Assembly (NCBI GenBank): GCA_965216875.1
Contig: OZ244207.1
Location: 5,600,001-5,664,000, forward strand
DNA length: 64,000 bases
DNA from: Rubripirellula sp.
GTDB taxonomy: Bacteria; Planctomycetota; Planctomycetia; Pirellulales; Pirellulaceae
Direction of reading: 5' to 3'
In this document: positions 5,911 to 37,747 of the stretch, in pieces
Layout: each line of letters opens with the position of its first letter
Position numbering within the stretch: the stretch's first letter is position 1
The notes under the pieces: model-generated
Told to the model about the DNA's origin: nothing
The model's input: only the letters and a program-made list of their open reading frames with translations
Database searches by the model: none
Position numbers and translations under genes: made by a program

Positions 5911-5918
5911 GCAGCAAT

Positions 5919-10450: not shown

Positions 10451-10885
10451 CTATCCCCGTGATTGAATATCGCTGCTCGACAGATCCTTGTCCGCCCCCG
10501 TGCCGCCTTCTTTGTGATCCGCTCCGTAACAAAGAACATCGTAGGGACGCGTCTTTCCTGGCGAGACGTATTCGTATGGATTGCCCCAGGGATCGTTTGG
10601 CACAAAACTCAGAATGCCTTCAGCGAACTTGTCGGTTGGCGTGGCAAGGATGGCAAGCCCCTCTTGGCTTGTCGGGTAACGGTCGTACATCGTGTAAAAG
10701 GTTTCGAGCGCTTCGCACACCTTGCTAATCTCCACCTCGGCCATGCCTTGCTTGCTGGTGATCAGGTAGCCGCGAACGCTTAGCGTCACCGCCCCCGTCA
10801 ACAGTCCTAGGATCACAAGCACGACCATCATTTCGACGAGCGTGAATGCCTTCGTTGTTACATGATCTCTATCCCGCAAGGACAT
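10451..10885 (-). CDS. gspG: T2SS major pseudopilin
   Basis: Prepilin motif KA|FTLVEMMVVLVILGLL; YPTSQEGLAIL and DPWGNPYEY...GADHKEGGTGADKD. Confidence 0.92.
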   Translation of the reverse strand: MSLRDRDHVTTKAFTLVEMMVVLVILGLLTGAVTLSVRGYLITSKQGMAEVEISKVCEALETFYTMYDRYPTSQEGLAILATPTDKFAEGILSFVPNDPWGNPYEYVSPGKTRPYDVLCYGADHKEGGTGADKDLSSSDIQSRG

Positions 10886-12077
10886 TGCCTGCCTCCAATA
10901 TCGGAAGTACGGTTGCAAAAAGTATGAAGCCGACAACGATCGAGAGCATGACGATCAATGCCGGTTCCAGGATCGTGGTCATTCGTGTGGCGAGTTGTTC
11001 CGCCTGGCGATCGTAGTCATCACCGAGTCGCTGCAACATGCGATCGAGTTGCCCGCTTTGTTGGCCAAGTGCAAATACCTGTGCGATTGAATGTGAAAAG
11101 ATCGGGTGCTTTTGTGCCGACTCTCTTAGGTCACGCCCTACCTTGAGATCTTCTTGCATCTCGGACAACGCGGAACGCAGCAATCGGTTGGTAGCTGAAC
11201 GTTCAGCGATCGCCAGGGCATCAACCAATTCCACGCCAGAACGCAGCAGACTGCTCACCACAAGTGCCATACGGCTAAGGGCTTGCTTTTGTACGAGCGT
11301 CCCAACAATGGGCAACGTCAATGCAACCCGATCAAGCCGGACTCGCCCACGCTCCGTTCGTAGGTGCGCTACTAGGCCAACCATGAGCAATGCCAGCCCA
11401 ACGAAAACGAATGGACCGTAGTCGAGCAGCGTGTCGCTTATCCATTTCAATATAAGCGTTGGTAGCGGCAGGTCCTGTCCCATCTCAAGCAGATTCTGAA
11501 GCAACATGGGGACAACAACGGTCATCAGGAAAACGGTCACCGCAACGCTGATCACCATCACAATCATCGGGTACAGTAGCGCCGAGATGACGCGATCCTT
11601 GAGCTGGCCGCTTCGTTCGCGAAAACCAGCGATGTGCTCGCAGACTTCATCGAGGTTACCCGCGTGCTCGCCGACGCGAACCATGCCGATCGTCATTTCG
11701 TCGAAGATCGTCGGTTCATCGGCCATTGCATCGGCGAGGCTTGATCCGCTCGACACTTTGTCTCGGACGGCGAGCATAGCATCGTGAAAACCGCCTCGCG
11801 TTTGCGGCAGCAACGAATCGATAGCGTCCAGCAGCGATACACCCGCTTGCAGCAGAGTGGACAACTCGCGTATCGCGTCGGTCAATTGATTCCTGTAACG
11901 ACCTGTCCGGCGTATCGTGAGCGTTTGGCCTTTGCTCGATGCTCGTTCGGCGACCGACTCGACGCGCAACCCGCTGCCGCGCAGCTGCTGCCGCGCATGT
12001 CGCCCGCTGGCCGCAGTGATCGTTCCGCGGCATCGCCGTCCGGTCTGATCGATCGCTCTGTATGCAAAAGTTGCCAT
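10869..12077 (-). CDS. gspF: T2SS inner-membrane platform protein
   Basis: MATFAYRAID start, two GspF repeats (GEHAGNLD, GQQSGQLD), ALLYP and LEPALIV. Confidence 0.93.
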   Translation of the reverse strand: MATFAYRAIDQTGRRCRGTITAASGRHARQQLRGSGLRVESVAERASSKGQTLTIRRTGRYRNQLTDAIRELSTLLQAGVSLLDAIDSLLPQTRGGFHDAMLAVRDKVSSGSSLADAMADEPTIFDEMTIGMVRVGEHAGNLDEVCEHIAGFRERSGQLKDRVISALLYPMIVMVISVAVTVFLMTVVVPMLLQNLLEMGQDLPLPTLILKWISDTLLDYGPFVFVGLALLMVGLVAHLRTERGRVRLDRVALTLPIVGTLVQKQALSRMALVVSSLLRSGVELVDALAIAERSATNRLLRSALSEMQEDLKVGRDLRESAQKHPIFSHSIAQVFALGQQSGQLDRMLQRLGDDYDRQAEQLATRMTTILEPALIVMLSIVVGFILFATVLPILEAGNVLAG

Positions 12078-12111
12078 CGCCCCGTTTCAGTCGTTCCTTG
12101 CTTCTTTGTTG

Positions 12112-13584
12112 CTAAAGTGCAGTACGCATCGTGACTCGGTCAATCTCTTCGCTGGTGGTCACACCCGCTTCGACTTTTTCAAGTCCCGATTCTCGCAACA
12201 ATCGCATGCCTCGATTGATGCCTGCTTCACGGATCTCTGAAGCATGCGCGCGACGTTGAATCAAATCGCGAATCGTATCGTCAAGCACTAGTAGTTCGTA
12301 GATGCCTTCCCTTCCACGATAACCTGTCCCTCGACAGGTTTGGCAAGAACTCACTTGTTTTTCGTGACCTCGACAGTTTGTGCAAACCCGTCGCACCAAC
12401 CGTTGAGCCATCACGGCCAGGACACTACTGGATACCAAATAGGGCTCAATCCCAAGGTCTAGCATTCGTGTGACTGCACTTGCGGCGTCATTCGTGTGCA
12501 ACGTGCTGAAAACCAAGTGTCCTGTCAATGCAGCTTGCACGGCCATCACCGCGGTTTCTTGGTCGCGTATCTCGCCGAGCATGATGATGTCGGGATCCTG
12601 TCTCAAAACGCTTCGTAGACCACTAGCGAACGTCATTCCTTTCTTCGTGTTGATTTGCGTCTGACTGATACTCTCGAGCTGGTATTCGATGGGATCTTCG
12701 AGCGTGACCGCGTTTCGTGAATCTGTATCAAGCTCCTGCAGCGCTGCGTAAAGCGTCGTGCTTTTGCCGCTTCCCGTTGGACCGGTGACCAAGACCAGGC
12801 CGTGTTCGGCGTGGATGACACTTTGGAACCGGTTCAATGTTCGAGTGTCCATGCCAATTTCAGCCAATTCGTAGAGCCTGGCGCTCTTGTCGAGCAGTCG
12901 AACGACAACGCGTTCGCCAAAGCTTGTTGGCATCGAAGCGAGGCGCAGGTCAATGATTCGCTGGCCAACACATACGGTCGCACGTCCATCTTGTGGCAAA
13001 CGTTTTTCGGCGATATTCATTTTCCCGGCGACTTTGAGCCGACTCACAACTTCATCCTGAACCGACTTTGGAATCTGCCGCACTTCGGTCAGCACACCAT
13101 CGATCCGCATGCGCACAACCATCGACTCTTCGAATGGTTGTAAATGGATGTCAGAAGCACGCTGTTGGATCGCGTCAAGAAGTAAAGAATTGACAAGCTG
13201 AACGACTGGACCTCGCGTGTCTGTCTCAAGCAAATCGTCGCGATTGACATTTGTCGGAGCATTTAACAACTCATCCAAGCTAACCGCATCGGAGTTTGCC
13301 AATGAGTTTCGCGATGCCTGTTTTTCATAAGCTTCATCGATCAAACCCTGAAGTTTTTCTACGTCAATCAGCTCGATGGCAATCGGGTTTCCCAGCAGTC
13401 GACCGATGTTGTCAGACAAGCGGTGCGACACTTCGCCGCCGCAAAGCAGTCGAACTTGGTCCTTATCGTCGCATGCTGCCAGGACATTATGCCGCCGGCA
13501 ATACTCAATCGAAAATCGTTCAAGAAAAGGCGCATAAGCCTTCCAAGTTTCAATCGGTCGTGTGTTGGTTGTTTCACTTCGCAT
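12112..13584 (-). CDS. gspE: T2SS ATPase (GspE/PulE)
   Basis: ASDIH, RLPQDGR, Walker A GPTGSGKST, TLEDPIE, LRQDPDIIMLGEIRD, TGHLVFSTLH and a tetracysteine motif. Confidence 0.95.
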   Translation of the reverse strand: MRSETTNTRPIETWKAYAPFLERFSIEYCRRHNVLAACDDKDQVRLLCGGEVSHRLSDNIGRLLGNPIAIELIDVEKLQGLIDEAYEKQASRNSLANSDAVSLDELLNAPTNVNRDDLLETDTRGPVVQLVNSLLLDAIQQRASDIHLQPFEESMVVRMRIDGVLTEVRQIPKSVQDEVVSRLKVAGKMNIAEKRLPQDGRATVCVGQRIIDLRLASMPTSFGERVVVRLLDKSARLYELAEIGMDTRTLNRFQSVIHAEHGLVLVTGPTGSGKSTTLYAALQELDTDSRNAVTLEDPIEYQLESISQTQINTKKGMTFASGLRSVLRQDPDIIMLGEIRDQETAVMAVQAALTGHLVFSTLHTNDAASAVTRMLDLGIEPYLVSSSVLAVMAQRLVRRVCTNCRGHEKQVSSCQTCRGTGYRGREGIYELLVLDDTIRDLIQRRAHASEIREAGINRGMRLLRESGLEKVEAGVTTSEEIDRVTMRTAL

Positions 13585-14159
13585 TTGCGAAATCTGATTT
13601 AAGGATCAATGAAGTGCGTCGCGCTCCGCACGCTATTGTCGCCTTTCGCTCCGCGAAATTTGCGCCGCTTGTAGGAGAGAAGATTCCGGCTAAAGCTCGG
13701 TACTACGAACAACTGGCTCAAACAATCACAGCCGCCCCGCGAAAGTTGCAATTGCACAACGTTTTTATGCACATCACGCTACCTTGCCGAAGCCACGTCA
13801 AGCATACATCGCGTCGTGTCGCAACGAACAACGTACAAAAAGCTCAATGCGGCGTTGAGCGCGCACAAGTATGACTGACAACAAACGATCTAGATTTTTT
13901 TTGGAAGTCGTAAGTCACTATTGCGTGCGTCGTCGCAACGGCTCTTTCGCTTTGACAAAAACGGGAGTTGCGCGTTTGTAGTTTGGTTCTACTAAGAACA
14001 ACTTGCGCGCCTTCGCGATCATTTTATTTTGCCCAAACTGTTGACAACCGAATTCGGAACGGCAATTGTGAAATTACTACTCACGGGTGCGTTCGGTTCA
14101 CCGATTTCACTACGTGTATTTCTCCTCAAATAATGCATCCAATCGCTGGGGTACTGCGA

Positions 14160-16217
14160 ATGGGCAGACGGGCACTGAGTCTGTTTGTGGTGGGATTGTT
14201 GGCTATCCAGGCAGGGTTGCTAACTCATTCCGCCAAAACGAATAGTCCAACATTCGACGAAGTCGGGCATCTTGCTGCCGGACTTTCTCACTGGGAACTT
14301 GGACGTTACGAGCTTTATAGCGTTAATCCGCCACTCGTGCGGACGATCGCCGCGGCACCAGTTGCACTTTGGTCAAAACCAGAAGTCGACTGGGGGCACT
14401 ACCGCGACGATCCTTCAAAAAGAACGGAGATTTTCGTCGGTCGTCGATTGATCGAACTCAACGGCGAAGACTCCTTTAACCACTTCTTCTACGCCCGGTT
14501 GGCGGTGATTCCCATCGCCTTACTTGGCGGGTTGCTTTGCTTTCTCTGGGCGAAGGATTTGTTTGGATCCACCGCCGGCCTGATAGCGCTCGCGCTGTGG
14601 ACCTTTTCGCCAAACGTCTTGGCTTACGGGGCCGTTATTACGCCCGACATGGGGTCGACGGTCGCGTTATTGGGGACCAGCTATCTCTTTTGGCGTTGGC
14701 TGAAAGAACCGAGTCTGGGTTGGGCGTTTTCGCTCTCGGCCGCACTCGGACTGGCGATGTTGACCAAGTCGGTTTGGCTCGGTTTGCCGTTCGCATTTGC
14801 CGCAATCTGGTTGGCGGCGAGGGTCTTTGACCGTCGCTCGAAAACGGATGAAAGCGAGCAAGCTGGCGAAGGAGAATCTCGGTCAGCTTGGATTTCGGGT
14901 CGGCGTGGCGAGGCCTTGCAGCTCGTAGCCGTCGCCACGTTGGCTCTCGTCTTCGTCAACGGTTTCTACGGATTCGAAAAAACATTTAGTCGCCTTGGTG
15001 AGTTCTCCTTCGTTAGCACCAGCTTTTCAGGTAATCTGGCCGAGTTGGTCGGAAGCTACTCCGATTGCATTGGGTGCCCCGAGAACGATCGCTTCAATGT
15101 CGAAAAGGGGAATCGGTTCGCCGGATCACTTCTTGGTTCTGTGCCAGTCCCGCTACCGGCTAACTATTTGCAGGGGATCGATATCCAAGTCCACGACTTT
15201 GAACGTGGCGCGTACGATTCCGCTTGGAAAAGCTATTTGTTGGGCCAGTGGAAGCAAGGCGGCTGGTGGTACTACTACATCGTCGGGCTGTTCTTCAAGG
15301 TTCCGATCGTCATTTGGTTGATGCTTGGTGCGGGGTCAATTGCTGCCCTCTCCTGGCGACCCGAACGCCAAAAACTGTTGGGGGTGATCTGCCTATGGGG
15401 ACCCGCGATTGGATTGTTTGTCGTCGCAAGTGCCTGTACCGGATTGAACCGATACATTCGCTACGTGCTACCCGTCCTTCCAGTGCTTCTGATTTGGGCG
15501 AGTCAAGTTGGACGATGGGTGGAATCCACCAACGAGAACTTTCAAAAGAAAGCTCGCATTGCGATCGCAGTCGGTTGTGTTTGGCTAGCCGCGACATCGC
15601 TTTGGAATGCTCCCGGTCACCTCAGCTATTTCAACGTTGCCGCCGGTGGTCCGAGTCAAGGGCACGAGGTTCTCTGTGATAGCAACATCGATTGGGGGCA
15701 AGACCTGATTCGGTTAAAGCAGTGGATAGAAGACAACCCAGGCGAAAGCGGCGAACTTTCGTTGGCTTACTTTGGTGGATTCGATCCGGCGACGGTCGGC
15801 TTGCAGTACAAGTTGCCGCCAAGGTATTTCGGCGATAGCGATTCCCAGCAACCGGCCTTCCGGATGAGTCCGGGCACCTATGCGGTCAGCAAGAGTTTGA
15901 TTGCAGGCCATTCGATGCCAGTGCCCGATGGCTACAACCCCATGAGGTTCCGCCTCTTTGGTCCCGGCGTCTTTTCGTACTTTGGCGAGCTTGAGCCGGC
16001 CGGTCGGATCGGTCATTCGATCAATTTGTACAAGGTGTCCAAGGAGCAAGCCGACAAACTTGCGGTTGATTTGAATCAACGGACGCTTGAGATGCGAAAA
16101 CTGGCACGGCAGCGTCGCGAAGCTCAACAACCAACCGTCGCCAAAGCGAGACCGGCGCAGGTCGACGTTGCCAAAGATGAACAGCAGAGTGTGGTCGTAA
16201 CGGAATCGGAATCGTGA
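14160..16217 (+). CDS. GT-C fold membrane glycosyltransferase (GT39/ArnT/PMT-like)
   Basis: TM helix then SPTFDEVGHLAAG (DE motif), NPPL, many TM helices, IRYVLPVLP and DSNIDWGQDL. Confidence 0.85.
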   Translation: MGRRALSLFVVGLLAIQAGLLTHSAKTNSPTFDEVGHLAAGLSHWELGRYELYSVNPPLVRTIAAAPVALWSKPEVDWGHYRDDPSKRTEIFVGRRLIELNGEDSFNHFFYARLAVIPIALLGGLLCFLWAKDLFGSTAGLIALALWTFSPNVLAYGAVITPDMGSTVALLGTSYLFWRWLKEPSLGWAFSLSAALGLAMLTKSVWLGLPFAFAAIWLAARVFDRRSKTDESEQAGEGESRSAWISGRRGEALQLVAVATLALVFVNGFYGFEKTFSRLGEFSFVSTSFSGNLAELVGSYSDCIGCPENDRFNVEKGNRFAGSLLGSVPVPLPANYLQGIDIQVHDFERGAYDSAWKSYLLGQWKQGGWWYYYIVGLFFKVPIVIWLMLGAGSIAALSWRPERQKLLGVICLWGPAIGLFVVASACTGLNRYIRYVLPVLPVLLIWASQVGRWVESTNENFQKKARIAIAVGCVWLAATSLWNAPGHLSYFNVAAGGPSQGHEVLCDSNIDWGQDLIRLKQWIEDNPGESGELSLAYFGGFDPATVGLQYKLPPRYFGDSDSQQPAFRMSPGTYAVSKSLIAGHSMPVPDGYNPMRFRLFGPGVFSYFGELEPAGRIGHSINLYKVSKEQADKLAVDLNQRTLEMRKLARQRREAQQPTVAKARPAQVDVAKDEQQSVVVTESES

Positions 16218-17017
16218 GCAGAAAGAAGAACAAAAAACAACCAGAGCAGGCAAGTCGTTTTCCCGTTGCCTTGTTGGCGGCCGTGTTTTTGCCACTCGTC
16301 GGCTTCACCGCCTATTCGACGATGCGTCAGCGGCCAGCGATCGAGGTGGCGGACGCTCCGCTTGCGATTCAAGCGCGCAACCAGGATGTGACCAGTGGTG
16401 GCATCGTGCGGCCTAAGACTGATGTCATGGTTCGTGGTGATGTTTCCGAAGTGGTCCAGCAGGTTCGCGAAATGCAAGAGGCGAGTTGGCCCACCGGATC
16501 TATCGAGGACCATTTGGACGAACTTCCAGTTCTCGATAAATCAATGAACGCCAACGTCAAGAACACAATCGAAGCGATCGAAACGGGCACGCATCCAGAG
16601 CGTTTGACACCAGTGATCCTGCCCAAAAAATTCGACCTCGCAGCGTACAAGGCGAACCCACAGGCTTACCTTGATGTCGTTGAACCGGGCCGAGTGTTTC
16701 AATCGGCCCAGCCTGGACGAGGTGTTCCCACCATCGGGTCGGGAAGTTCGATGTTTCAAACGCTCAAGCAAGGAGAGGCCGTTCGGCTTCGCGTCTTGAC
16801 CGAGCCTGGAGCACCGGTTAGTTGGACCTCATTCGACCTCGGGGCATTTGACAATCATCTTCCGTTGATCACCAAAGCAGCTAACGAAGAAGGTTGGGCC
16901 GAGGCAACGTTCACTGCAACCACGGGCACAACCGGCACGGTCAATATCCTGGCCGCCAGTCCGGTCGCGTCCGGACGTGTTGAATACGTCGTGACCATTC
17001 AAGAGCCGCAAGGCTAG
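16214..17017 (+). CDS. Membrane-anchored hypothetical protein with C-terminal Ig-like beta domain
   Basis: Basic N-terminus, one TM helix and a beta-rich tail; GTGA overlap with the glycosyltransferase gene. Confidence 0.75.
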   Translation: MSRKKNKKQPEQASRFPVALLAAVFLPLVGFTAYSTMRQRPAIEVADAPLAIQARNQDVTSGGIVRPKTDVMVRGDVSEVVQQVREMQEASWPTGSIEDHLDELPVLDKSMNANVKNTIEAIETGTHPERLTPVILPKKFDLAAYKANPQAYLDVVEPGRVFQSAQPGRGVPTIGSGSSMFQTLKQGEAVRLRVLTEPGAPVSWTSFDLGAFDNHLPLITKAANEEGWAEATFTATTGTTGTVNILAASPVASGRVEYVVTIQEPQG

Positions 17018-17159
17018 TTGAAAACACAAATCCAATTGACGCTTGAATCGCAAGCGAGTGAATCTCGGTGTTTTTGCTGAGTCCTCGCAAACTACTTATT
17101 GACATCTAGCACACCATTCATCTTTGAGTTTTGGCACAGGACTCGTCTGGGGGACATCG

Positions 17160-20100
17160 ATGAATCCGCTTCGCAGGTTCGTAATTCGCTTGGTAGTGAT
17201 GGTCTTTGCGGCCGTATCAATTTGTTCGTATGGCTTCGCTCAAAACCCACCGCCACCTGAGATGGTGTGGGGCAATGTCAACTCTGAAGATGCAACACCG
17301 AGTCCGATCATTCGCCAGCCCGACATGCGAACCGCCACCGCTAATTCGGCCGTAAACGGATGTATGAACAAGGCCTGTGTGAGCGAGTGTCCGCCGCCTG
17401 CTGGGATTTCGGATGTATCCGGTTGGAATCCCTATGACTCTGGCCCGTTCGTAAGCGACTGGAATCCAAGTGGTTCGGGGCCACTTGGTCGAGGTGGCTG
17501 GAATCCAAGTGGTTCGGGGCCACTTGGTCGAGGTGGCTGGAATCCAAGTGGTTCGGGGCCGCTTGGTCGAGGTGGCTGGAATCCAAGTGGTTCGGGGCCG
17601 CTTGGTCGAGGTGGCTGGAATCCAAGTGGTTCGGGGCCACTTGGTCGAGGTGGCTGGAATCCAAGTGGTTCGGGGCCTCTTGGATGTGGAAGCGGGTCAT
17701 GTGGCTCAGGCGGACGCTCGGGTGGAGCGGGGATTCCGGCCAACCAGTCTCCTTTCTATTTCAGCACGATCACTGGTGGTGCCAACGGAAGACCTCTCCG
17801 GCAAGGCACAATCAACGGTATGTCGATGATCGAAGGATTCGGTCTCGACTACATGCACTGGGCCGACGACATCGTGCCGCGGATTCGTGGTGACATTGGT
17901 GTTCGACGTTTTCACCGCCCTCGTTTCAGCGCATGTGGTTCAAGCTTTGGCCCAATGGTGATGAGCAACTGGGATCTGAGACTCTACTTTCACCTCTACT
18001 ACGGCGGCGATACTTCGGTTGGCTACACGCAGATCTATGTGCGTGATCCAATCGCCCAGACACCTTACCGCCTCAATCACATCAGCTACGGCACTTACAA
18101 CGAAGGCGGGCACAACCTTCTAGCAGCAGACAAGGGAAAGTTTGTTCCCCAGACGGCAGGTACGATTAAAGAGGCGTGGGTGGGGCCAGAGCTCCCAGAT
18201 TCAAATACCGTTTGGGACTACAACCCTCAAGCAAGCTCAATCAATTCGAGCAACTTCTTCCTAGCACACGAAGACGTTCGAACGGCCACGATGACGGGCT
18301 GGGATGGAGTGGTTTATGAGTTCGAGCTAATGAAGATTCCCGACCAGACCGCGTGGGAGCAAGTCCTCGACCAACAATGGTTGTACATGAACGGACTGCC
18401 TGGCTATTCCCAGGCGGCGTATTACGGCTCCGAAATCTACAACTACGTGATTCAAGGTCGGCTCACCAAAATCACCATCCCAGGCAATCGGTCGTACACG
18501 ATCAGCTACAAGAGCTGGACGCCGATGGAGATCTATGACTCGTGGGAGCGTGTTTGGCAGATTGACACCATTACTTCGGAAACGGGGCAAACACTGACCT
18601 ACACTTATGGTGCGCAAACAGTCGCCGGCCAGTGGGCTGTCAGCAACATTGCCAACAGCAATGGCAAATCAGCAAGCTACACCTACACCAATGACTACCT
18701 TTCGCAGGTCACACGAAGCGACGGCACGACATCAAGTTTTACCAACGGCTTCGATTCCGTGGCCAATGCCGCGTCGATTGAATTCGATGATCCCGCAGCC
18801 GAAAACGGACATCGCAAGAAGACCATTCTGCTGTCGTCATCATCTGCGGGGACAAGTGGATTCTACTTCGCGGGTTCGATGAACTTGATTCGATCCGTTG
18901 TCAATGCCGCTGGCGAAGTAGCCTACGCGAGCATTCCGGTCATGAACTATTCCGCGCCGAGTGGGCAGGGTCTTTCGGTTTTCAACTATGTCGGCGGCGG
19001 CCGGATGATGCGCAACGTACCAGCGGGTGGGGCAAACCTGAATGCAACGGGCGCTTTTTGGCGGTGGTCTTCTTACATGGAAGGCGGCTGGCAAATGTCA
19101 GTCAATAATGGGGCGATGGAATTCACCGGCGACGCGGAATCTCCCATAGCCGTTCACGAAAGTACCGGTCTCTGGGGAACATTGGGCAATCTCTACCCCA
19201 CCACGGTTGACGAACGTGGCCTAACCCAGACGCACGAGTACGACAATGGCTGGCTCGTACGGACCAACTATTCCGACGGCTCGTTTGAAACATGGTGTCG
19301 TGATGGATCAGGACGTGTCACTCGTTACCGCGACCGCAACGGCAATGTAACGAAGTATGCGTACCACTCATCCGGCGCGTTGTCTCTGAAGGAAGTTGGA
19401 CTTACCGACCACCCAAGCAACGTTGACGTCCCGCCAACACAATACGGAAGCGGTACGCCCTACGACTATTGTGCGACGAACGACGTCCAGACTGCTGATC
19501 ATGCTGTCTATCAGTGGACGTACAACGCCGATGGACAACTACTCGCCAGTATCGACCCACTTACAAACCAGACTGACTACAACTATGACGCACAGGACCA
19601 ATTGATCGAAATCAAGGCTCCCCAGGTTACAGGTGAATCAGGTCGCGCCACCACGACGATGACCTACCATCCGTCCGGCAAGCTGAAAACGATGACCGAT
19701 CCTGTCGGAACGGTCATCGAGTACTTTTACGATGGCCAGGATCGCTTGATCAGCACTCTCTACGATGATGGCACAACCGATCGGACTGAATACGAAACGG
19801 GCACCAACGGCTTCGGGCTTCCCGCCAAGACCATTGACCGACTTGGCGTCGTCACCACTTACGAATACGACGCGGCGGACCGGTTGATCAAGAAGGTGGC
19901 CGCTGCGGCCCAGATGGACGGTGCGACCGAAACACCCACACCCGAGCTCGCCTCGACTTCCGAATGGAAATACCTCGAAGGAACAAACGACCCGATCGCA
20001 ACCCGCGTCGATGGCCGCGTGACGACCTACAAGTACGACTACCGCGGACGCCGAATCGAAACAAAGGTCTATTCGTCTGCTGGCGTTTCGAAGGTTGTTC

Positions 20101-23891: not shown

Positions 23892-23892
23892 G

Positions 23893-24483: not shown

Positions 24484-24650
24484 GGGCTTGGCCGAATCTA
24501 GGATGAAGTCTTTCTCGTTGATGGGAAGTCAGCACTGCCGAGACGAACTCGATCCTCCGCTGCTGTCGCCTTGGCCCATCCGTCGCTCACCCGACACACA
24601 ACCAAGAAGTGAGCATCGTCCTGAACTGGGAGATTTTTGAACCGGGTCGC
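24459..24650 (-). pseudogene. Remnant of a REP-associated tyrosine transposase (RAYT/Y1) with terminal motif
   Basis: Minus-strand RFKNLPVQDDAHFLVVCR resembles the RAYT segment GRFKSFPVQDDxHFLxVCRY; no full ORF; ends at aaaaagacccccgtcccctttt. Confidence 0.55.
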
Positions 24651-25255
24651 GCGCGTCAAGGCGGCTACACCGTTTGCCGGGAAGGCAAGAGTTTCTGCAT
24701 GAGAGCTAACCGCACCAATCAGAGATAGCGCTGCGCGCGGCCATTGAAAAACCGGCCGAAAACTTGCAGCTCCAGACCTAAGTGACCCGATCGAAGCCAG
24801 GAGACAGCTTCGAATCAACACAATGGTCTCGCTAGTGGTATGTCCCCATGTGCCCCATTTTGGGCGAGGAGTGCTTGCGGGGTCTTCCGCGAGGTCGGAT
24901 CGTGGACCATAGACCGAGCCGATCAGCAATCGATTCTGTCCAAGTAGCGTCTCCGAACGGGCGCTCTCGTTGGACACTGGTCCGAATAGCTTCACGCTCC
25001 CGGCGTTAATCGAAACCGGCAACCGGTTGCATAACCTCGTATGCAATCGACCCGGTCACAACGTCCCGTGACCATGCGGAAGGTCTTACCAAAGGAGTGC
25101 ACTGATTCGAGGGCAATGCGGGGGCGCGTCTTTGAGTGTTCGGAGGGGACTCGTTGCCTCGTCCACTACCATAATCTCGCCCACTACTAAGATGGCGACG
25201 GGCTATAATCGAGTCGGTGTATGTGAATCGGTTTGAATGGTCAGGCTTCATGATT

Positions 25256-25798
25256 ATGTACGGCAAGGCGAATTGCAGAGATCTCGCTCGCCCCAAAGCG
25301 TTTACGCTCCTTGAGATCATGGTGGTGGTTGCAATTCTTGCAATCGTGTCGGCGTCGGCTGTCTTGGCAGTTCGCCAACCTCTTGCCGACACCCAGCACG
25401 AACTCACCGTTTCAAAACTGCGATGGCTTGACTCGCTGGTAAGGGGGCGAGCCGAGCGGTTTGGTCAGGCGGCGCTCGAAATCGATGCTCAGCTCGGTTC
25501 GGCTAGCGTTTCGACCGGTATGGACCGATCGGGTCGTCGCGCGGTGGATCATAGGATGGTAGTCGACCAGCCAACGCACATTCACACTGTCTTGGGGCAC
25601 AACGAGAAATCGAACGAAGGCGTTTATCGAATCGTCTATAATCGTTTTGGCCGGTGTTCCTCCTACGCCATTGAGCTCGGTGACAAGCACTCGTCTCAGT
25701 GGCTGCTGGTGCTTGGATTGACCGGCCAGACGTACAACTTCGATGATCGGGGCAAGGTGGATGCGATTATTGCGGCCGAGCGGAATGACGCTGATTGA
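25256..25798 (+). CDS. gspH: T2SS minor pseudopilin (GspH-like)
   Basis: KA|FTLLEIMVVVAILAIV prepilin motif; first of four coupled pilin genes. Confidence 0.75.
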   Translation: MYGKANCRDLARPKAFTLLEIMVVVAILAIVSASAVLAVRQPLADTQHELTVSKLRWLDSLVRGRAERFGQAALEIDAQLGSASVSTGMDRSGRRAVDHRMVVDQPTHIHTVLGHNEKSNEGVYRIVYNRFGRCSSYAIELGDKHSSQWLLVLGLTGQTYNFDDRGKVDAIIAAERNDAD

Positions 25799-26171
25799 AG
25801 TCGTTGCCGGCATCGCGTTGCTGGGCACGCTCATGGTCGCTGTCTTGATAAGCGGTAGCCAACATCTACGTCAGTTGAAGGCGGCTGACCAGAAGCGGCA
25901 AGCTACAGCCAAGCTCGACGACTTTTTAGCTGCCTGGGCGTTGCAAAACTTTTCCGATGACGGTCTGTCGGTTGCAGCGGCTCGTGCTGGATTGAGCGTG
26001 GCTGACCACCCCGTTGCATCTGATTCGACGCAAACGTCCTATGTCGTGGAAGTAAGTCCACGCCCGGCGTTGATCGACGGCGGCAAAGTGCTGCGGCTCG
26101 ATGTTTCGGCTCAACGACCTAACGGAACACGCCGTCCGGCAGCTTGGGCAGAGATTCTGGTGGAACAATGA
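25761..26171 (+). CDS. gspI: T2SS minor pseudopilin (GspI-like)
   Basis: SG|MTLIEVVAGIALL; gene order. Confidence 0.7.
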   Translation: MRLLRPSGMTLIEVVAGIALLGTLMVAVLISGSQHLRQLKAADQKRQATAKLDDFLAAWALQNFSDDGLSVAAARAGLSVADHPVASDSTQTSYVVEVSPRPALIDGGKVLRLDVSAQRPNGTRRPAAWAEILVEQ

Positions 26172-26686
26172 GGGTTTGTGGTTCCAGACACGCACCTCGA
26201 CATGGCCTTACGCTGGTCGAGCTAACCGTTGCGCTCGCGCTATCAGCGATGCTAATGGCTGGCATCGTCGGTTTGTTGCGCGGCTTGAATCAACAATCAG
26301 AGCTTGCTGAAGAATACGACACCGATGTTTGGCCTGCGCGATTTGTCTCTTTGATTCGAAGCGATTTGATGTCCGCCCAGTCGTTATGGGATGGAAGCGG
26401 CGTGATTTGGATGAGGCATGATGCGTCGGGCCAAGCACAGAGCCGGGTTGGGTATCGTTGCCGTACTTTGACTGAAGGGCTCAGCGTGCTGGAACGAATC
26501 GATGCAGACGCTGTGTCCGTTTTGGCGATCGGGCCCGCACGTGTTGACGTGGAGAGGCTTGATGCCCAGGGACTTCCACAGCCGATTCCGAACACGCCTG
26601 GACCAGTGCCAACCCAGGTTCGCATCTGGGTATGGGATGGCGAGAACACCGAGCCGGTTGTCCTTCGTGATCTGGTGTTGCGATGA
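26168..26686 (+). CDS. gspJ: T2SS minor pseudopilin (GspJ-like)
   Basis: HG|LTLVELTVALAL; gene order. Confidence 0.7.
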   Translation: MRVCGSRHAPRHGLTLVELTVALALSAMLMAGIVGLLRGLNQQSELAEEYDTDVWPARFVSLIRSDLMSAQSLWDGSGVIWMRHDASGQAQSRVGYRCRTLTEGLSVLERIDADAVSVLAIGPARVDVERLDAQGLPQPIPNTPGPVPTQVRIWVWDGENTEPVVLRDLVLR

Positions 26687-27531
26687 CGTCTATCGGCACA
26701 CGGACACAGCGCCGCGGGTTTGTCCTATTGATGGTTGTCGTAATGATCGCCATCGCAGCCATGATTTTGGCCCGACTCGCGAGCACTTCTCTGCGGGTTG
26801 CGTCGGTCGCTGTTGAAGAGGAACGCGAGATGCGAGAGCGTTGGGCAGTGGCCAGCCTGCGTCGGTATTCCTTTGAGACAGCGCCGAGGTTGTTTGCTGG
26901 TCTTTCAGATCAAGATGCCAACGACGGGACGCGAGCGGTCTTTTGGCAAGACGTGAGACTAGCTGGCGAGACCTGGAAGATCGTTGTGGCGGATGAGTCG
27001 GCAAAACTGAACCTCGCGAAGTTCCGAGGCCAGATCGGAAGTGACGATTGGTCGACCGATGTTGAACCGCTGCTCGAAACAAATTCGGTACGATTTAATT
27101 CGAGCATTGAGGCACCTCGATTGCGATGGGGCGACTGGCTCGAGGCGGCCGGTAGTTCCCGGTCGCCTTCGGCCGAGGCGGTCGCAACCGCAACGCAGCG
27201 CATCACGCTGTGGGGCGATGGTCGACTGAACGTCATGCAGTGTGATGATGAAACGCTTGGCATCGTTTGGAGACGACAGTTCGGCCATGCGCCACCGGCG
27301 GTGCTGCATCAGATGCGATCACAGCAACCGCCGCCGACAACACAACAAATGATGGCCGCATTGGATCTGCGGGATTCCCAGCGAGACAAGGCGAACAACT
27401 GGATCACGGCCGAAAGCCGTTGCTATTCGACTTGGGTATTTTGCAGAACGAGCCATCGAGTCCCCGCATCGCTCTTTGTAGAATGGGGGCAGTCGGGAGC
27501 TGCGAAGGAGCATCGCGGTTACCAATACTAA
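26683..27531 (+). CDS. gspK: T2SS minor pseudopilin (GspK-like)
   Basis: RG|FVLLMVVV lacking Glu5, plus the DESAKLNL and GRLNV motifs typical of GspK. Confidence 0.8.
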   Translation: MTSIGTRTQRRGFVLLMVVVMIAIAAMILARLASTSLRVASVAVEEEREMRERWAVASLRRYSFETAPRLFAGLSDQDANDGTRAVFWQDVRLAGETWKIVVADESAKLNLAKFRGQIGSDDWSTDVEPLLETNSVRFNSSIEAPRLRWGDWLEAAGSSRSPSAEAVATATQRITLWGDGRLNVMQCDDETLGIVWRRQFGHAPPAVLHQMRSQQPPPTTQQMMAALDLRDSQRDKANNWITAESRCYSTWVFCRTSHRVPASLFVEWGQSGAAKEHRGYQY

Positions 27532-27563
27532 GGCAGTGGTTCGGGCTTCGCTCGGGGTACAAA

Positions 27564-28091
27564 TTGAACGACAAGCATTCTCGTCTCGCTCTGGGAACCG
27601 CCAGTTTGATCTGCGCGTCTGGTGCTTCGGCTCTCATCTCAGCCGCAGTCCTCTTTCCACCTGCGATACCGGTTGTTGAACACAGCGCGGTGGATAGCCG
27701 ATTTATTCCTCAACCCACTTCCGTAGCCGGACGCGAAGAACTGACGGAAGAGGATTTTCAGTTTGTGTGGGGAAAGAAGCTGCAGCAGCCAAAAGAACAA
27801 CCCAAGCCAAGGCCTAACCGTCCCGCCAAAAAGGTCGAGCCTCCCAAACCACCGCCGAAGCCAGCAGTACGGTTAAACGTTTCAGTCACCGGGATCATCA
27901 AAACGGGCGACTACTCACGTGCATGGTTGTCCGTTGATCGGCGAACTGTAGCCGTTTCGCCTGGTGACGTAATCGAATCCCACCCGGGTTCGCCAACGGT
28001 GAAGGAGATCGGAGAACGAGAGGTCGACATCGAATTGGCCGGCGAGATGCATACCGTGTCACTCCCCGACTCCGAGATGATGGCCGAATGA
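27564..28091 (+). CDS. GspC/PilP-like membrane-anchored protein; start uncertain
   Basis: TM helix, Pro/Lys linker and VTGII...AWL...VSPGD...VKEI beta domain. Confidence 0.6.
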   Translation: MNDKHSRLALGTASLICASGASALISAAVLFPPAIPVVEHSAVDSRFIPQPTSVAGREELTEEDFQFVWGKKLQQPKEQPKPRPNRPAKKVEPPKPPPKPAVRLNVSVTGIIKTGDYSRAWLSVDRRTVAVSPGDVIESHPGSPTVKEIGEREVDIELAGEMHTVSLPDSEMMAE

Positions 28092-29347
28092 TTGAATCGC
28101 TTCATTCAAATGAATTGGAACCAGTGGTCCCGGCGTTGTTCGTCGCTGATGGAAGCTGCGCTATTCATGGCGACGGCGATGACGAGAGCGTTGACGCAGG
28201 TTCGATTGTCGTTGGATTGACGAGTCAACAATGCGTCTGCGTCAGTGGAACGTCCAGCAACCGCAGGTCGAGTCGCAGTTTGCTTGTCTATGATCTTGAA
28301 GACGAATTGCCCATCGATGGCGATGCATTGGCGATTGCACAGATCGATACAGCGGAGGGTGCATTTGTCGTCGCATGCGACGGCGACGAACACTGGGAGG
28401 CGGTTGCGAATCTTGAAGACCGAGGCTACTACGTTCGCGCAATCACTCCGCTGGTCTTTCTCGCCCTTGGCACGCTCGCAAAATCGAGGTCGCTGAAATC
28501 GCTTAGCACGATTATTTGGCAGAGTGGCAACGGGATCGACATTGTGACACTCTCTCGTGGCAAGGTGATTGACTGGCGATGGATTGCGGCGGAGCAGCGG
28601 ACAGCTGCGGAGTATGCTGATTCCGTGGGGGAAAACGAAGGCGGCGTCTGCCTTGTAGACGTCGATGTCGAATTGAGTGAGGCCTTTGCGGGTCTCGGAG
28701 ACGTCGAGGTCGAGTCGATCCCGCTGCGTGCAGCGGCAGAGGAGGAAGCGGATCGGATCGCAAACGGGTTGGCGGTGCCAATGATCGATCTTCGAAACGG
28801 TCCGCTCGAGTCCTCACAACCGCTTCGTCCAATTGCCAGTTCTCTCCGATTGTTCATCGTTTGTTTCTTTGCATTGCAGGCTTGCGTTGTCGGTGCGATT
28901 GCGGCTCGAAGCTCCTATCTAAGGTCGCTCGCAAGTCAGCTTGTCGACAAACAAGAAGCAGCGTTTGAGACGACCTTTCCTGGTGAACGTGTGCCAGTCG
29001 GAATCATTTCGCGACTACAAAGCGAGCAGCGACGACTGGCCGGTACACGCGGCGTTTCAGGTCCGTCGATGCCGCAGCTTCGTTCTGCGATTCCGATTAG
29101 CCATAAGCTGCTCAGTTCGATGCCCGAACAGAATGATGCGACCTACTGGCTGAGTCGACTCGAGTTGCAACCCGATGCTATTGGTGTGATGGAAGGCGAA
29201 GCCGAGTCCTACGGTGATCTCGAGTTGATAGCCGAACGAATGCGTATCGCCGGCCTTGACGTTCCCCCGGTTTCGGCAACGCAAACCTCCAAGGGCGTTT
29301 CACTTCGCTTCGAGGAGATCGGTGTTGCGAGTGAGGCCGAACAATGA
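28088..29347 (+). CDS. gspL: T2SS GspL-like protein
   Basis: Actin-like cytoplasmic part (YDLEDELPID), IDLRNG before a single TM helix, then a periplasmic domain. Confidence 0.7.
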   Translation: MIESLHSNELEPVVPALFVADGSCAIHGDGDDESVDAGSIVVGLTSQQCVCVSGTSSNRRSSRSLLVYDLEDELPIDGDALAIAQIDTAEGAFVVACDGDEHWEAVANLEDRGYYVRAITPLVFLALGTLAKSRSLKSLSTIIWQSGNGIDIVTLSRGKVIDWRWIAAEQRTAAEYADSVGENEGGVCLVDVDVELSEAFAGLGDVEVESIPLRAAAEEEADRIANGLAVPMIDLRNGPLESSQPLRPIASSLRLFIVCFFALQACVVGAIAARSSYLRSLASQLVDKQEAAFETTFPGERVPVGIISRLQSEQRRLAGTRGVSGPSMPQLRSAIPISHKLLSSMPEQNDATYWLSRLELQPDAIGVMEGEAESYGDLELIAERMRIAGLDVPPVSATQTSKGVSLRFEEIGVASEAEQ

Positions 29348-29886
29348 ACCAGTTCTCGAGATCAGCCTATTGGGTGTTGTTCACCCAGGCACTTCTGTTG
29401 GCGCTGATGATTTGGATGGGCCTGCGATTAAGTGACGCCCACGCTTCACTTAAGGACAGCGCCGACAATGAGAAACTCGCCGTGAAACTTGCAGCTGAGA
29501 TCGAGCAGTTGCGAGCAATGGATTCAGTCGCAAACGATGACGAAAACCAGGTGCGCATCGAAAACTCGCAGGTCGTTGAGCTAGCCAGGATGTGCGGTGT
29601 CACCGAACCTCAGATTGCTTCGATCCAGCGTTTGCCTTCCGAAGGGATCAAAAACACGGATTATCAACGGCACGACACATCCCTACAGTTCCGCGCCGTC
29701 ACCATGGAGCAATTGCTGCGAATGGGATTGATCATGGAGCGTGAACGGCCCTCGGCGAAGGTGACTGCGATCCATTTGACAAGCAACCGTCTGCCAAATG
29801 CCCAACACAAGGGCAATCAGGAGCTCTGGAATGTCGAGCTGATCTTGACGCAATTGGTCTACGTTGCGAGAAGTGCCATCAACTGA
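29344..29886 (+). CDS. gspM: T2SS GspM-like protein
   Basis: TM helix, coiled coil and ferredoxin-like tail; follows gspL. Confidence 0.55.
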   Translation: MNQFSRSAYWVLFTQALLLALMIWMGLRLSDAHASLKDSADNEKLAVKLAAEIEQLRAMDSVANDDENQVRIENSQVVELARMCGVTEPQIASIQRLPSEGIKNTDYQRHDTSLQFRAVTMEQLLRMGLIMERERPSAKVTAIHLTSNRLPNAQHKGNQELWNVELILTQLVYVARSAIN

Positions 29887-29949
29887 CGTTAAGCTGGGAA
29901 GGATTCCAGCACTTTTGAGGGCACTTCATTCTGCGGCAGGACTACGCAG

Positions 29950-30846
29950 TTGGCAGGACGCGTTTTCGCTTCGAATCTATGGAAAACGGCTGCGGTTGCC
30001 GCTGCGCTGATGCTCGGTGGCTGCGGTTCCCTGATTCACCGTCATGACACGCACGCTGTGCCCTACACAACACAGCCACCACATGACTCCGTGGTGAATG
30101 AACAGGCGCGACTACTCAACAAACGTGGCCTTCATGCATTTGAGATTGGTAATCTTCTCAAGGCGGAGCAACTTTTCCGCGAGGCTCTCGAGGCCGACGT
30201 GAACTTTGGCCCAGCGCACAACAACCTTGGCCAAGTCTACCTGGCTCGGCACCAGCTCTATCTTGCAGCTTGGGAATTTGAGTACGCAGCCAATCTCATG
30301 CCCGAACTCGTCGAGCCGATCATTAACCAAGGGTTGGCATACGAAACAGGCGAACGGCTCGAACGAGCTGCGGAGATCTATCAAGACGCATACTCGCGAC
30401 TGCCCAGTCATCCGGTCGCGATAGCAAGCTTGGTTCGCTGCAAGGTCAAACTCGATGCGGATCCTTATGAGATTGCTTTCTTGCTGGACGAGCTGATCAT
30501 GCACGACGGGCGTCGTGAATGGGTCGAGTGGGCAAAGGAGTTGCGAGCAACCAAATACCGTAACGATTGCTTGGAATGCGGCGAGCACCAGTCGCATCAG
30601 CAGTTCGACGACCAGTCATCGGATCGTCAACCAAGCTTAGGGCGAGATGAGTTCGATCGTGAATCGGATTCACTCAGACGCGAGTTGTTGCCGATGACCG
30701 AGCCAGTGCCCGGCCGGCCAGATGACGAGTCAACAGAGAGTACGAAGCCGAGCGTGCTTCTGCCTGGGGATGGAACTGCAGACCGGTCGCTCGGGTTCGA
30801 GCTGCCACCGATCCCAAATGATGTAACCCAAGGGCCACGCGAATGA
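29950..30846 (+). CDS. TPR lipoprotein (PilF/PilW pilotin-like)
   Basis: Lipobox LMLGGC; TPR motifs AHNNLGQVY and NQGLAYE; directly upstream of the secretin. Confidence 0.75.
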   Translation: MAGRVFASNLWKTAAVAAALMLGGCGSLIHRHDTHAVPYTTQPPHDSVVNEQARLLNKRGLHAFEIGNLLKAEQLFREALEADVNFGPAHNNLGQVYLARHQLYLAAWEFEYAANLMPELVEPIINQGLAYETGERLERAAEIYQDAYSRLPSHPVAIASLVRCKVKLDADPYEIAFLLDELIMHDGRREWVEWAKELRATKYRNDCLECGEHQSHQQFDDQSSDRQPSLGRDEFDRESDSLRRELLPMTEPVPGRPDDESTESTKPSVLLPGDGTADRSLGFELPPIPNDVTQGPRE

Positions 30847-33191
30847 CCAGAAACAAAATGATCGCGCTGAGATTCGCGGTGTGCCTTGCCTCCATGTTGG
30901 CTGTTGCATTCGGTGGAAGGCTAGCCGCTCAGCCAGTGCCGCCGCAAAAGACAATGCTGCTGCAAGGTGAAGTACCGCTCTCGGGCTTCATCGACTTCAT
31001 GTCAAAACAGCTTGGTGTGCGTATTCTGTATGACGAATCCTTAAGTAAGAAGAACGTCAACCTGATCGCCCCCGATCCAATCCCTGCCGAAAGCCTTCCC
31101 GAGGTTCTGCAGACGGTGTTGATCAATGAGGGGTTGGTGATCACCGACACGGATCGCCAAGGATTCAAGCGGATCACAACTAATGCTCAGATACCGATCG
31201 TGGCTCGTCCGAGCAATGCGTCCGAGGACTTGACCAAAGTTGACGCCGCGGTGCCCCTCACACGCGTGTTTGTGTTGGGCGAAAGTCAGCCGACGAAACT
31301 CGCCGAGCTGATCAAACCTTTTCTTACGGGAACAGGTGCAACGGCGATTCCGCTCGATCGCAGCGGATTGTTGGTTGTGACCGATGTGGCAAGGAACATT
31401 CGCCGCGCCGAACAACTCATACGCGTGCTTGATGGTGAATCGACTCAGGTCGAAATCGAGTTCGTCCCTGCCAGAAATGTTGCGGTCAACGACTTGGCGG
31501 ACCAACTTCGCGAATTGTTGTTGGCAAGAAAGAAGGCGATGGGCACGGGCGAGGACGCTGCGGGTGGACTTGAGGTATCAATCGACGCGCGAACCAACAG
31601 CCTGATTTTAATTGGGACGACGTTCGAAATCACACAGGCACAGCGTCTGCTAAGTCAGCTCGACAAATCGCTCGACACACAACAACGTGCCTTTACCCTT
31701 CGTTTTTTCTCTGCAGAAAAGCTTGATTCGATCGTTCGAGACATTGTCGACGGCCAGCCACTGAAACCTCCGTACCAATCGCGCGTCGAAGGAAACGTGT
31801 TGATCGTCAGTTCGACACCGGAAGTGCTGCAGTTGGTCGACCGAACTCAGAGGCAACTCGATACGCGAGAAGCACCCGAAGGCCAGAGTCCGGTTCGCTT
31901 CTACAAGATCAAGAACGTTCCTGCCCAGGAACTCGTCGAGACGATTCGAGGCATTGGCGGCCGAGTCACCGCGACACCGCAACGACAAACACTTCCGCCA
32001 CGACGCAGAACAACGAACGACATCGCTGTGCCCGGTCCAAACCTGCCAGCACTTCAGTATCCTGGCGAGGCCCAGCCGATCCAGATTCCCCCGACCCCAC
32101 CAGCGGTCCGCGAGCCGATCAATCCAAGCGACCCACTTGCCGCTAGGCTGCCAGCGCTAGCGGACGAAATCACAACGCCGATGGGAGAAGCGTTTGCGCA
32201 GGGCTTTCCACAGGACATCGTCGCGGAGGCTGAGGCCACTGCACCTGAATCTCAAAGCCTGCTCGGTACTGCTGAAGTGACGGTTGACGTGCACACGAAC
32301 ACAATCATTGTCGTCGCACCTCCAGATGTTCAGCGCGTCTACGCGACATTGATTGAGCGGCTCGATCAGCGCCGGCCACAAGTTTTGATCGAAGCTCAGA
32401 TCGTGATCATTGACACGTCTGATGACTACACCCTTGGTGTCGAAGTCTCAGGTGGCGACCGTAGCGGCGTAAAGCGATTGTTCAGCTTTTCGAGCTACGG
32501 CCTGAGTACGGTTGATCCGACGTCGGGGGCACTAAGCATCATTCCTGGTGTTGGATTCAACGGAACTTTGGTTGACCCTGACACTGCGGATGTGGTTGTC
32601 AGAGCGCTAACGACTCATCGCCGAGCACGCGTGCTTTCAGCACCAAGAATTTTGGTAAACGACAACGCGGAAGGGCAATTGACGAGCGTCTTGGAAGTTC
32701 CCTTCACAAGTGTCAATGCGTCACAAACGGTTGCAACCACGAGCTTTGCAGGTTTCGCGGAGGCGGGGACAACAATCACGGCGACGCCAACGATTAGTGA
32801 AGACAACTATTTGCAGCTCGACTACACCGTGACGCTCAACTCGTTCACCGGTGTGGGATCTGACGGTGTGCCCCCTCCACGCCAAACCAATGAGGTTCGA
32901 AGCCGGGTTACAGTTCCCGATGGCTATACCGTGATCGTTGGTGGCCTCACCTCAAAGAACGAATCGTACGAAATCGATTCGATCCCATTTCTTGAGCTGA
33001 TCCCTTTGATCAAGGATCTCAGCAGCCTACAACGCGACAATTGGCAGGAAACGTCATTGTTCGTTTTCCTCAAGCCGATCATCTTGCGTGAGGACAAGTT
33101 CAAAGACCTACGCTTCCTCTCAGATTCCAGCCTGCAAAAAGCCGAGCGCCCCGGCAATTTCCCTGCGAACGAACCACTTACGATCGAGTAA
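30843..33191 (+). CDS. gspD: T2SS outer-membrane secretin
   Basis: Signal peptide, N-domains, RRPQVLIEAQIV, APRILVNDN, VPDGYTVIVGGL and IPFLELIPLI. Confidence 0.93.
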   Translation: MTRNKMIALRFAVCLASMLAVAFGGRLAAQPVPPQKTMLLQGEVPLSGFIDFMSKQLGVRILYDESLSKKNVNLIAPDPIPAESLPEVLQTVLINEGLVITDTDRQGFKRITTNAQIPIVARPSNASEDLTKVDAAVPLTRVFVLGESQPTKLAELIKPFLTGTGATAIPLDRSGLLVVTDVARNIRRAEQLIRVLDGESTQVEIEFVPARNVAVNDLADQLRELLLARKKAMGTGEDAAGGLEVSIDARTNSLILIGTTFEITQAQRLLSQLDKSLDTQQRAFTLRFFSAEKLDSIVRDIVDGQPLKPPYQSRVEGNVLIVSSTPEVLQLVDRTQRQLDTREAPEGQSPVRFYKIKNVPAQELVETIRGIGGRVTATPQRQTLPPRRRTTNDIAVPGPNLPALQYPGEAQPIQIPPTPPAVREPINPSDPLAARLPALADEITTPMGEAFAQGFPQDIVAEAEATAPESQSLLGTAEVTVDVHTNTIIVVAPPDVQRVYATLIERLDQRRPQVLIEAQIVIIDTSDDYTLGVEVSGGDRSGVKRLFSFSSYGLSTVDPTSGALSIIPGVGFNGTLVDPDTADVVVRALTTHRRARVLSAPRILVNDNAEGQLTSVLEVPFTSVNASQTVATTSFAGFAEAGTTITATPTISEDNYLQLDYTVTLNSFTGVGSDGVPPPRQTNEVRSRVTVPDGYTVIVGGLTSKNESYEIDSIPFLELIPLIKDLSSLQRDNWQETSLFVFLKPIILREDKFKDLRFLSDSSLQKAERPGNFPANEPLTIE

Positions 33192-36249: not shown

Positions 36250-36356
36250 CTCCACTGCGGGTCCTTTCTGAGGGCCAATGTAAACGGTGTGCCACCCCCC
36301 TCGACGCAAACAATGACACAGTGCGTGCGTGTCCGCCAAACTGACAGGAGCCTAAC

Positions 36357-36578: not shown

Positions 36579-36611
36579 TATTCACTAACTTGCTTCACGG
36601 AGTGAATAGAC

Positions 36612-37734: not shown

Positions 37735-37747
37735 GGATGGTACAGCC

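Follow-up and report, generated by a model that had tools for sequence, protein, structure and literature searches.

In the 64,000-bp stretch of Rubripirellula sp. DNA analysed here (the window; positions 5,600,001–5,664,000 of contig OZ244207.1, assembly GCA_965216875.1), the gene of a large Rhs protein directly follows the gene of a small membrane protein, named here the Rhs partner, and both lie inside a cluster of type II secretion system (T2SS) genes. This feature is real, recurrent and well beyond chance. In total, 45 partner-bearing genomes were compared, excluding the host of the window; 29 of them had at least 14 kb of context around the partner and 16 had a shorter context. At least two core gsp genes were present in the partner locus of 19 of the 45 genomes, that is, 19 of the 29 in which at least 14 kb was seen, against a chance expectation of about 1.3%, the share of the host genome situated equally close to a cluster of this kind. 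Thus, the synteny survey proposed in a preliminary description of this DNA revealed a recurrent physical link between the Rhs and one T2SS subtype, far above chance. We consider it probable that the locus encodes a two-step export route, in which an Rhs polymorphic toxin would pass through Sec and then through the T2SS with the help of its own Rhs-binding adaptor.

The Rhs partner, the Rhs protein and its tip

The central part of the locus includes the following features (all gene coordinates are window positions, and gene identities come from Pfam and NCBIfam profile searches of the window open reading frames, ORFs):

16214..17017, plus strand: Rhs partner, a 267-aa membrane protein with an N-terminal membrane helix, a conserved EPGR motif and a C-terminal invasin/intimin-type immunoglobulin (Ig) domain
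17124..23891, plus strand: Rhs protein, a 2255-codon ORF with a likely start at ATG 17160 (PF05593, RHS_repeat; TIGR03696, Rhs_assc_core)
17420..17731, plus strand: 39-nt tandem repeat in the Rhs leader, encoding a 13-aa Gly/Pro-rich unit; shorter in a close relative, which skips 17567–17716
23875..24483, plus strand: candidate immunity gene, a 202-codon ORF coupled directly to the stop of the Rhs and encoding a hydrophobic segment at its N-terminus
13968..16217, plus strand: PMT_2-type membrane glycosyltransferase (PF13231)

The partner has 190 homologs. It occurs in 17 of 301 genomes of the phylum and in four of 301 genomes of the order (host genome counted), and was found in 40 loci of a species collection, mostly from Planctomycetota and two from Verrucomicrobiota. 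In 51 of the 57 partner ORFs with downstream context (63 distinct partner ORFs in all) an Rhs of the same family comes directly after the partner, as it does in all six loci of a genome of the same genus (G629). Judged from the sequences, the conserved core of the system is the membrane partner plus the Rhs, and their adjacency is near-obligate. The glycosyltransferase, included in the gene combination proposed earlier for the survey, stands beside the partner in only six loci (the window, L009, L012 and three loci of G629) and was rejected as a core component; we regard it as accessory. In the Verrucomicrobiota loci L036 and L039 the partner ends a gsp operon, and no Rhs follows it in L036.

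The structure model of the partner has a mean predicted local distance difference test score (pLDDT) of 87. Its Ig domain is closest to those of invasin and intimin (Z 10.7, root-mean-square deviation [rmsd] 2.0–2.4, 86–92 aligned residues); the values for invasin are Z 10.7, rmsd 2.0 and 86 aligned residues. A protein atlas search gave no matches for the partner or for the Rhs tip.

The Rhs protein is composed of a signal peptide, a Cys/Pro/Gly-rich leader, a conserved N-terminal domain, the YD shell, an autoprotease-type motif and a Cys-rich tip of 180 aa, residues 2076–2255. The Sec-type signal peptide claimed earlier is supported, as the single hydrophobic stretch of the protein is N-terminal and comes after a basic segment; a crude, hydrophobicity-based test for signal peptides was passed by 40 of 45 Rhs proteins and by none of 860 control windows. 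Both aspartates of the autoprotease motif are present ahead of the tip, D2050 in a DPIG sequence and D2071 in the variant DSLG. In Pfam and NCBIfam searches only RHS families matched the protein, and Pfam found no PAAR, VgrG or WXG domain, as had been stated. The protein has neither the PAAR/VgrG N-terminus nor the neighbourhood by which type VI secretion system (T6SS) effectors are recognised, and no TcA or TcB partner genes expected for a TcC-type protein were detected among the window ORFs scanned. Its profile matches to teneurin-like chains in the PDB span only the YD region. Two tRNA-Pro genes called by ARAGORN were set aside as likely artefacts because they are located inside the coding tandem repeat of the leader.

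Conservation among 23 Rhs proteins is high from the N-terminal domain up to the DPxG motif and then collapses. The same boundary was seen in an algae-metagenome run that contains a copy of the block from gspG to gspM, 93–96% identical to the window: its Rhs contig ceases to match at 23281, in the DPIG motif, continues with 2789 unlike bases, and re-aligns at 24452, on 23 letters only. The Rhs relatives thus show hypervariable, exchanged C-terminal domains and are accompanied by orphan cassettes, the hallmark of polymorphic toxins, and together with the core end at DPxG this argues for the toxin character assigned to the window protein in the preliminary description.

Cysteine makes up 5.0% of the tips and 0.56% of the cores (24 proteins), an approximately nine-fold difference that would fit oxidative folding outside the cytoplasm. 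Three of 22 tips matched a Pfam family over the cut-off (PLA2, Tox-WTIP and TGL), and HExxH motifs are visible by eye in several others. The window tip belongs to a family of 10 proteins with conserved cysteines, and the nine aligned sequences share no invariant catalytic residue. Its structure model is of low confidence (pLDDT 64); a Foldseek search with this model returned nothing at E 0.001, and the best wide match (Z 5.2) was to LptE-like folds.

The candidate immunity gene has no family match in Pfam. Genes in the same position downstream of the Rhs relatives are separated from the Rhs by a short spacing, are mutually unrelated and mostly encode an N-terminal hydrophobic segment. The host genome encodes two more giant Rhs proteins of 4588 and 3982 aa (C1:6606954-6620720 and C1:8048841-8060789), which have another N-terminus and no partner gene.

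The type II secretion cluster and its link to Rhs loci

Profile searches reproduced the layout described before: gspGFE on the minus strand and gspH-I-J-K-C-L-M-TPR-D on the plus strand surround the glycosyltransferase, the membrane protein, the Rhs and the likely immunity gene. The secretion genes are as follows:

10451..10936, minus strand: gspG, major pseudopilin, likely start ATG 10885 (PF08334; TIGR01710 at 105.8 bits, above the 88.85 cut-off)
10869..12077, minus strand: gspF, platform protein (PF00482; best NCBIfam model GspF, below its cut-off)
12112..13584, minus strand: gspE, ATPase (PF00437; Walker A, Walker B and two CxxC motifs)
25217..27531, plus strand: gspH, gspI, gspJ and gspK, minor pseudopilins (N_methyl matches in three pseudopilins, class III motifs; the GspK match is weak)
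27267..29886, plus strand: gspC, gspL and putative gspM (weak NF041515 and TIGR01709 matches for C and L)
29950..30846, plus strand: TPR lipoprotein, likely pilotin-like (PilW-like TIGR02521 below cut-off; lipobox LGGC)
30843..33191, plus strand: gspD, secretin (PF00263; PF03958, N domain; weak PF21305, N0 domain)

The cluster contains the components that define a T2SS, namely a secretin with N0 and N domains, one GspE-type ATPase with GspF, and GspG with the minor pseudopilins H–K. GspE is its sole ATPase, and PilT is absent from the cluster. For GspD, GspE and GspF the top-scoring models are T2SS ones, although below the equivalog cut-offs (GspD, 279 bits under a cut-off of 351). GspM has no family match and was assigned from its position and its similarity to the M-position gene of related clusters. 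As noted earlier, neither a prepilin peptidase nor T6SS genes were found among the window ORFs scanned. The proposed reliance on a host prepilin peptidase is supported, since the host genome has four A24 matches at three places.

The link between the partner-Rhs unit and the T2SS persists across widely varying gene orders, and the cassette often splits the gsp cluster. An example is G629: the tips differ among its six partner-Rhs loci, and orphan Rhs cassettes come after four of these. Its island-type T2SS is 79% (E), 76% (F), 75% (G) and 80% (D) identical to that of the window and is dispersed: the E-F-G genes adjoin one partner-Rhs, a second E adjoins another, and the H-to-D module is located elsewhere with no Rhs nearby. 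It is likely that one machine can serve several scattered partner-Rhs loci. In the genomes G628 (84% complete) and G638 neither a partner match nor an island-type GspD match was found.

The partner and GspF distances correlate among 15 linked clusters (rho 0.59, p 0.002), a relation confounded by host kinship. T2SS clusters in G310, G001 and G004 and a third locus of G629 flank Rhs genes that lack this partner. At three places (L115:3592-6330, L171 near 13600-15450 and L100:11792-15754) a T2SS cluster flanks an Rhs preceded by another, unrelated large ORF, of 912, 617 and 1320 aa, respectively; these ORFs may be partners of a different kind or separated halves of an Rhs. At L109:242-6781, next to a cluster whose GspE groups with the Rhs-linked ones, a signal-peptide protein of 2179 aa is encoded that matched no Pfam family.

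In the GspE tree the T2SS subtype forms a clade (99), in which the Rhs-linked sequences are placed on deeper branches and the Rhs-free ones form three nested groups. The host genome also contains a resident paralogous T2SS of the same subtype (C1:7005511-7017398; gene order D-E-F-G-H-I-J-K-C-L-M-TPR), which has no Rhs and groups with the copies of family relatives, and the island GspE lies outside the family-level Rhs-free clade that contains this copy. An ancestral linkage to Rhs is only suggested by this topology because the sampling favoured linked loci. It should be mentioned that the GspE trees were obtained by 'quick' searches and do not include the G629 sequences.

The comM island

In this genome the locus is indeed carried by an apparently mobile island, as had been supposed. 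It is an element of about 43.3 kb with a serine recombinase, which splits comM:

C1:5599543-5599930: remaining 3' part of the interrupted comM, immediately outside the left edge of the window
34826..39832, plus strand: element backbone, comprising replication genes of the DnaD-like and DnaC-like types and an ORF weakly resembling a tape-measure gene
41538..43307, plus strand: large serine recombinase (PF00239, PF07508, PF13408; phrog_95 integrase), abutting the right junction
43165..44427, minus strand: interrupted comM (Mg chelatase family), 5' part, with the island junction near 43170–43200

The inner ends of the island are formed by inverted attachment (att)-like arms identical at 19 of 22 positions, as counted by hand. 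In six of the seven loci of relatives comM is full length; for the seventh, the same check returned no ORF of full length. By 4-mer deviation the island ranks fifth among 192 genome windows, and the gsp genes are no outliers (percentiles 0.50 and 0.77). No capsid or terminase match was found among 20 ORFs of the element and no conjugation family among the ORFs scanned; with such a backbone, self-transfer of the element is unproven. No excision joint was present at the island junction in the contigs of one sequencing run. Two other runs (X10 and X11) had no contigs matching the island or its flanks and are therefore silent on empty sites. The contigs of run X5, presumably an RNA run, span 14091–24755 nearly in full and none maps to 36000–50000, which we do not take as evidence of expression. 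The Mg chelatase (comM-type) gene is the target of 12.4% of predicted site-specific integrases according to the accessible part of PMC10083194. Compared with the comM-inserted serine-recombinase elements described there, the insertion site of the window island is ordinary and its cargo is unusual.

The idea that the system is generally island-borne was not borne out: G629, of the same genus, has an intact comM and no match to the island recombinase. Several comM pieces were found in a same-genus genome (L174 and G628:C8:448916-455339), which suggests a separate insertion or duplication. Two short repeats inside the island, at 13677–13710 (273 genome hits) and 25146–25169 (140 hits), are host-wide, and this suggests long residence in the lineage. 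Because the repeats at 13677 and 25146 are host-wide, apparent joints between them were disregarded. In the left arm of the island (688–9637), small ORFs without relation to one another point in either direction and are separated by intergenic regions with short direct repeats; they encode ankyrin and DUF4145 proteins, a lipoprotein, and membrane and secreted proteins. Its ankyrin gene has a near-identical copy at C1:2940597. Outside the island, at 50400–51302, there is a gene of the DUF2314 family, which is named Imm34 in the accessible part of Zhang et al. 2012 (PMC3482391).

The export route and its alternatives

The partner is predicted to bind the N-terminal domain of the Rhs. Co-folding of Rhs residues 226–1000 with partner residues 95–267 gave a score of 0.81 (three runs), and the best of three controls reached 0.00. 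The score mark applied is reached by 116 of 157 solved and two of 215 mismatched pairs; with alignments of our own making, these figures apply only approximately. The runs share at least 68% of their contacts, the partner pLDDT is at least 83, and the predicted interface occupies Rhs residues 267–587, ahead of the YD region, with a modelled contact segment at partner residues 131–135. By sequence, no similar solved chain was found for the partner or for the Rhs N-terminal domain, so it is less likely that the model recalls a known complex.

In the route that we favour, the Rhs protein would cross the inner membrane via Sec and fold in the periplasm, where its tip would be caged and its disulfides formed. 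The anchored partner is predicted to hold it there and may act as an adaptor or chaperone, like CpaB of Acinetobacter. The pseudopilus, with pilins matured by host peptidases, would push the Rhs through GspD; autocleavage would follow D2071, and most tips would probably act on the envelope of competing cells. The Sec plus T2SS route put forward in the preliminary description therefore keeps its Sec-signal Rhs, its polymorphic-toxin character, the recurrent link and, in this genome, the island cargo, and loses the attributes 'dedicated' and generally island-borne.

Several observations weigh against this route. In ten of the 29 well-covered partner genomes, no more than one gsp gene is seen around the partner. 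Among 20 close GspD loci chosen regardless of Rhs, 10 have no Rhs nearby, five have one and five are cut by contig ends (12 non-host matches of the order sample with three, six and three loci with Rhs, without it and unclear, respectively, and eight top-tier phylum loci with two, four and two; the phylum matches with lower scores contributed only four new neighbourhoods). An exclusive Rhs-linked GspE clade was rejected by the approximately unbiased (AU) test (p 4e-46), the tree for which omitted seven long-branch sequences of 37 (two from L108, L036, L039 and three host paralogs). With half of the closest GspD loci, including the resident paralog of the host, free of Rhs, and with this clade rejected, 'dedicated' is too strong a word for this T2SS. 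GspG-like genes were present in 241 of 301 phylum genomes and 38 of 48 partner genomes; since GspG is common and not enriched in the latter, co-occurrence at the genome level is uninformative. The host carries, besides its resident paralogous T2SS, a T6SS at a distance of about 1.5 Mb from the locus. Nineteen of 22 tips have no Pfam match over the cut-off, and the window tip has neither a family match in Pfam nor a fold match. The predicted interface residues are no more conserved than others (p 0.28 and 0.57). Finally, given the usual sizes of T2SS substrates, an Rhs of about 240 kDa in its folded state would be a large cargo for a secretin.

The partner might instead be a display stalk, exported together with the Rhs and keeping it on the cell surface, where the T2SS or its pseudopilus would present the Rhs for contact-dependent delivery. 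Such a role is suggested by five loci in which a signal-peptide protein of 417–3071 aa, encoded directly upstream of the Rhs, has the partner module at its C-terminus (the longest of these proteins has many Ig repeats), and by the resemblance of the Ig domain to the stalk domains of invasin and intimin. However, most partners are short and have a single N-terminal hydrophobic helix resembling an uncleaved anchor, a neighbouring gsp cluster was seen for only one of the five stalk forms (L133), and sharing the Ig fold proves no function. We hold the stalk to be unlikely.

A still smaller probability is assigned by us to simple co-travel, in which the partner-Rhs unit, as a mobile cassette, would often come to lie next to a general T2SS, with release of the Rhs from the cell via any T2SS, in vesicles or by lysis. 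The Rhs-free GspD loci, the lack of an exclusive GspE clade, the common unlinked partner-Rhs loci and the patchy distribution of the partner in the phylum and order samples would all agree with it. On the other hand, the linkage exceeds chance about 50-fold and has been kept through many rearrangements, the partner and GspF distances correlate (with the reservation about kinship made above), and unrelated Rhs types are also found inside gsp clusters. That the Rhs is an adhesin or a kin-recognition surface protein like teneurins, with the tip as a recognition tag and no toxin, is very improbable: the Cys/Pro/Gly-rich leader, the scarcity of enzyme matches among the tips and the lack of an invariant catalytic residue in the window tip family would fit this, but the protein has the two aspartates at the catalytic positions, tips of the PLA2, Tox-WTIP and TGL families exist, and so do tip-specific downstream genes and orphan tip cassettes.

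A bolder reading, which we regard as speculative and rather doubtful, is a contact-dependent T2SS weapon. Here, a two-chain Rhs would be loaded on a specialised pseudopilus-secretin machine and shown to neighbours, the Ig module of the partner serving as an in-trans cap or stalk (the role played elsewhere by VgrG, TcB or teneurin domains); in Planctomycetota, this T2SS subtype would have had the arrangement from its origin, and integrative elements would have spread it.

We compared the locus with known systems, using the accessible parts of the cited papers. Among the close ones are the signal-peptide RHS toxins that Zhang et al. 2012 (PMC3482391) list under the general secretory (default) pathway with no signature neighbour gene. 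They share with the window Rhs the signal peptide, RHS repeats, a variable tip and, judged from the candidate gene found here, an immunity gene, but the Rhs described here is accompanied by a conserved partner and is in physical linkage with a gsp cluster. The T6SS Rhs effectors such as RhsA, in which two aspartates 22 residues apart are required for cleavage (PMC8765631), likewise combine a YD shell with an autoprotease motif of two aspartates that precedes the tip; the window Rhs differs from them by the lack of PAAR, VgrG and T6SS linkage, by its Sec signal and by a different N-terminal domain without a solved sequence relative. The bacterial teneurin-like proteins reported in 2026 (PMC13018210) also have a YD shell, Sec targeting and polymorphic tips, and are toxins accompanied by cognate immunity genes. 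For these, the accessible text gives no obvious delivery machinery and predicts lipoprotein anchors for Gram-negative members; the terms 'planctomyc' and 'T2SS' have no match in it.

As a working analogy for the partner we use CpaA/CpaB and LipA/LipB of Acinetobacter (PMC9952577), in which a membrane-bound, substrate-specific partner is required for type II secretion. Like CpaB and LipB, the Rhs partner appears from its sequence to be anchored and is co-encoded with the Rhs, which it is predicted to bind. Unlike them, it is Ig-based, has no sequence match to solved chains, and its presumed cargo is a caged toxin. The Hxc (LapA) and Txc (CbpE) systems of Pseudomonas (PMC6567927) are similar in being second, accessory, substrate-specific T2SSs, with Txc located in a region of genome plasticity. 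In contrast to the window locus, the cargoes given there are a phosphatase and a chitin-binding protein, with no polymorphic toxins. Giant genes beside T2SS-like loci have been reported in the accessible part of a study on Omnitrophota (10.1101/2023.11.21.568195). In the open-access literature (main texts, excluding supplements and subscription journals) we found no description of an Rhs-partner-gsp locus. Rhs polymorphic toxins themselves are already known; what is new here is a previously unnamed partner and the T2SS frequently linked to it.

The passage of Sec-signal Rhs toxins and teneurin-like toxins of Gram-negative bacteria through the outer membrane is an open question, for which this locus offers a candidate machine and a candidate adaptor, and the question becomes testable in cultured planctomycetes. 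If the proposed route is true, interbacterial polymorphic toxins would join the cargo of the T2SS, the size limit of secretins would be put to the test, and a pool of Cys-rich, mostly uncharacterised toxin tips with envelope-located immunity proteins would be at hand in the Planctomycetota, whose mechanisms of competition have been little studied.

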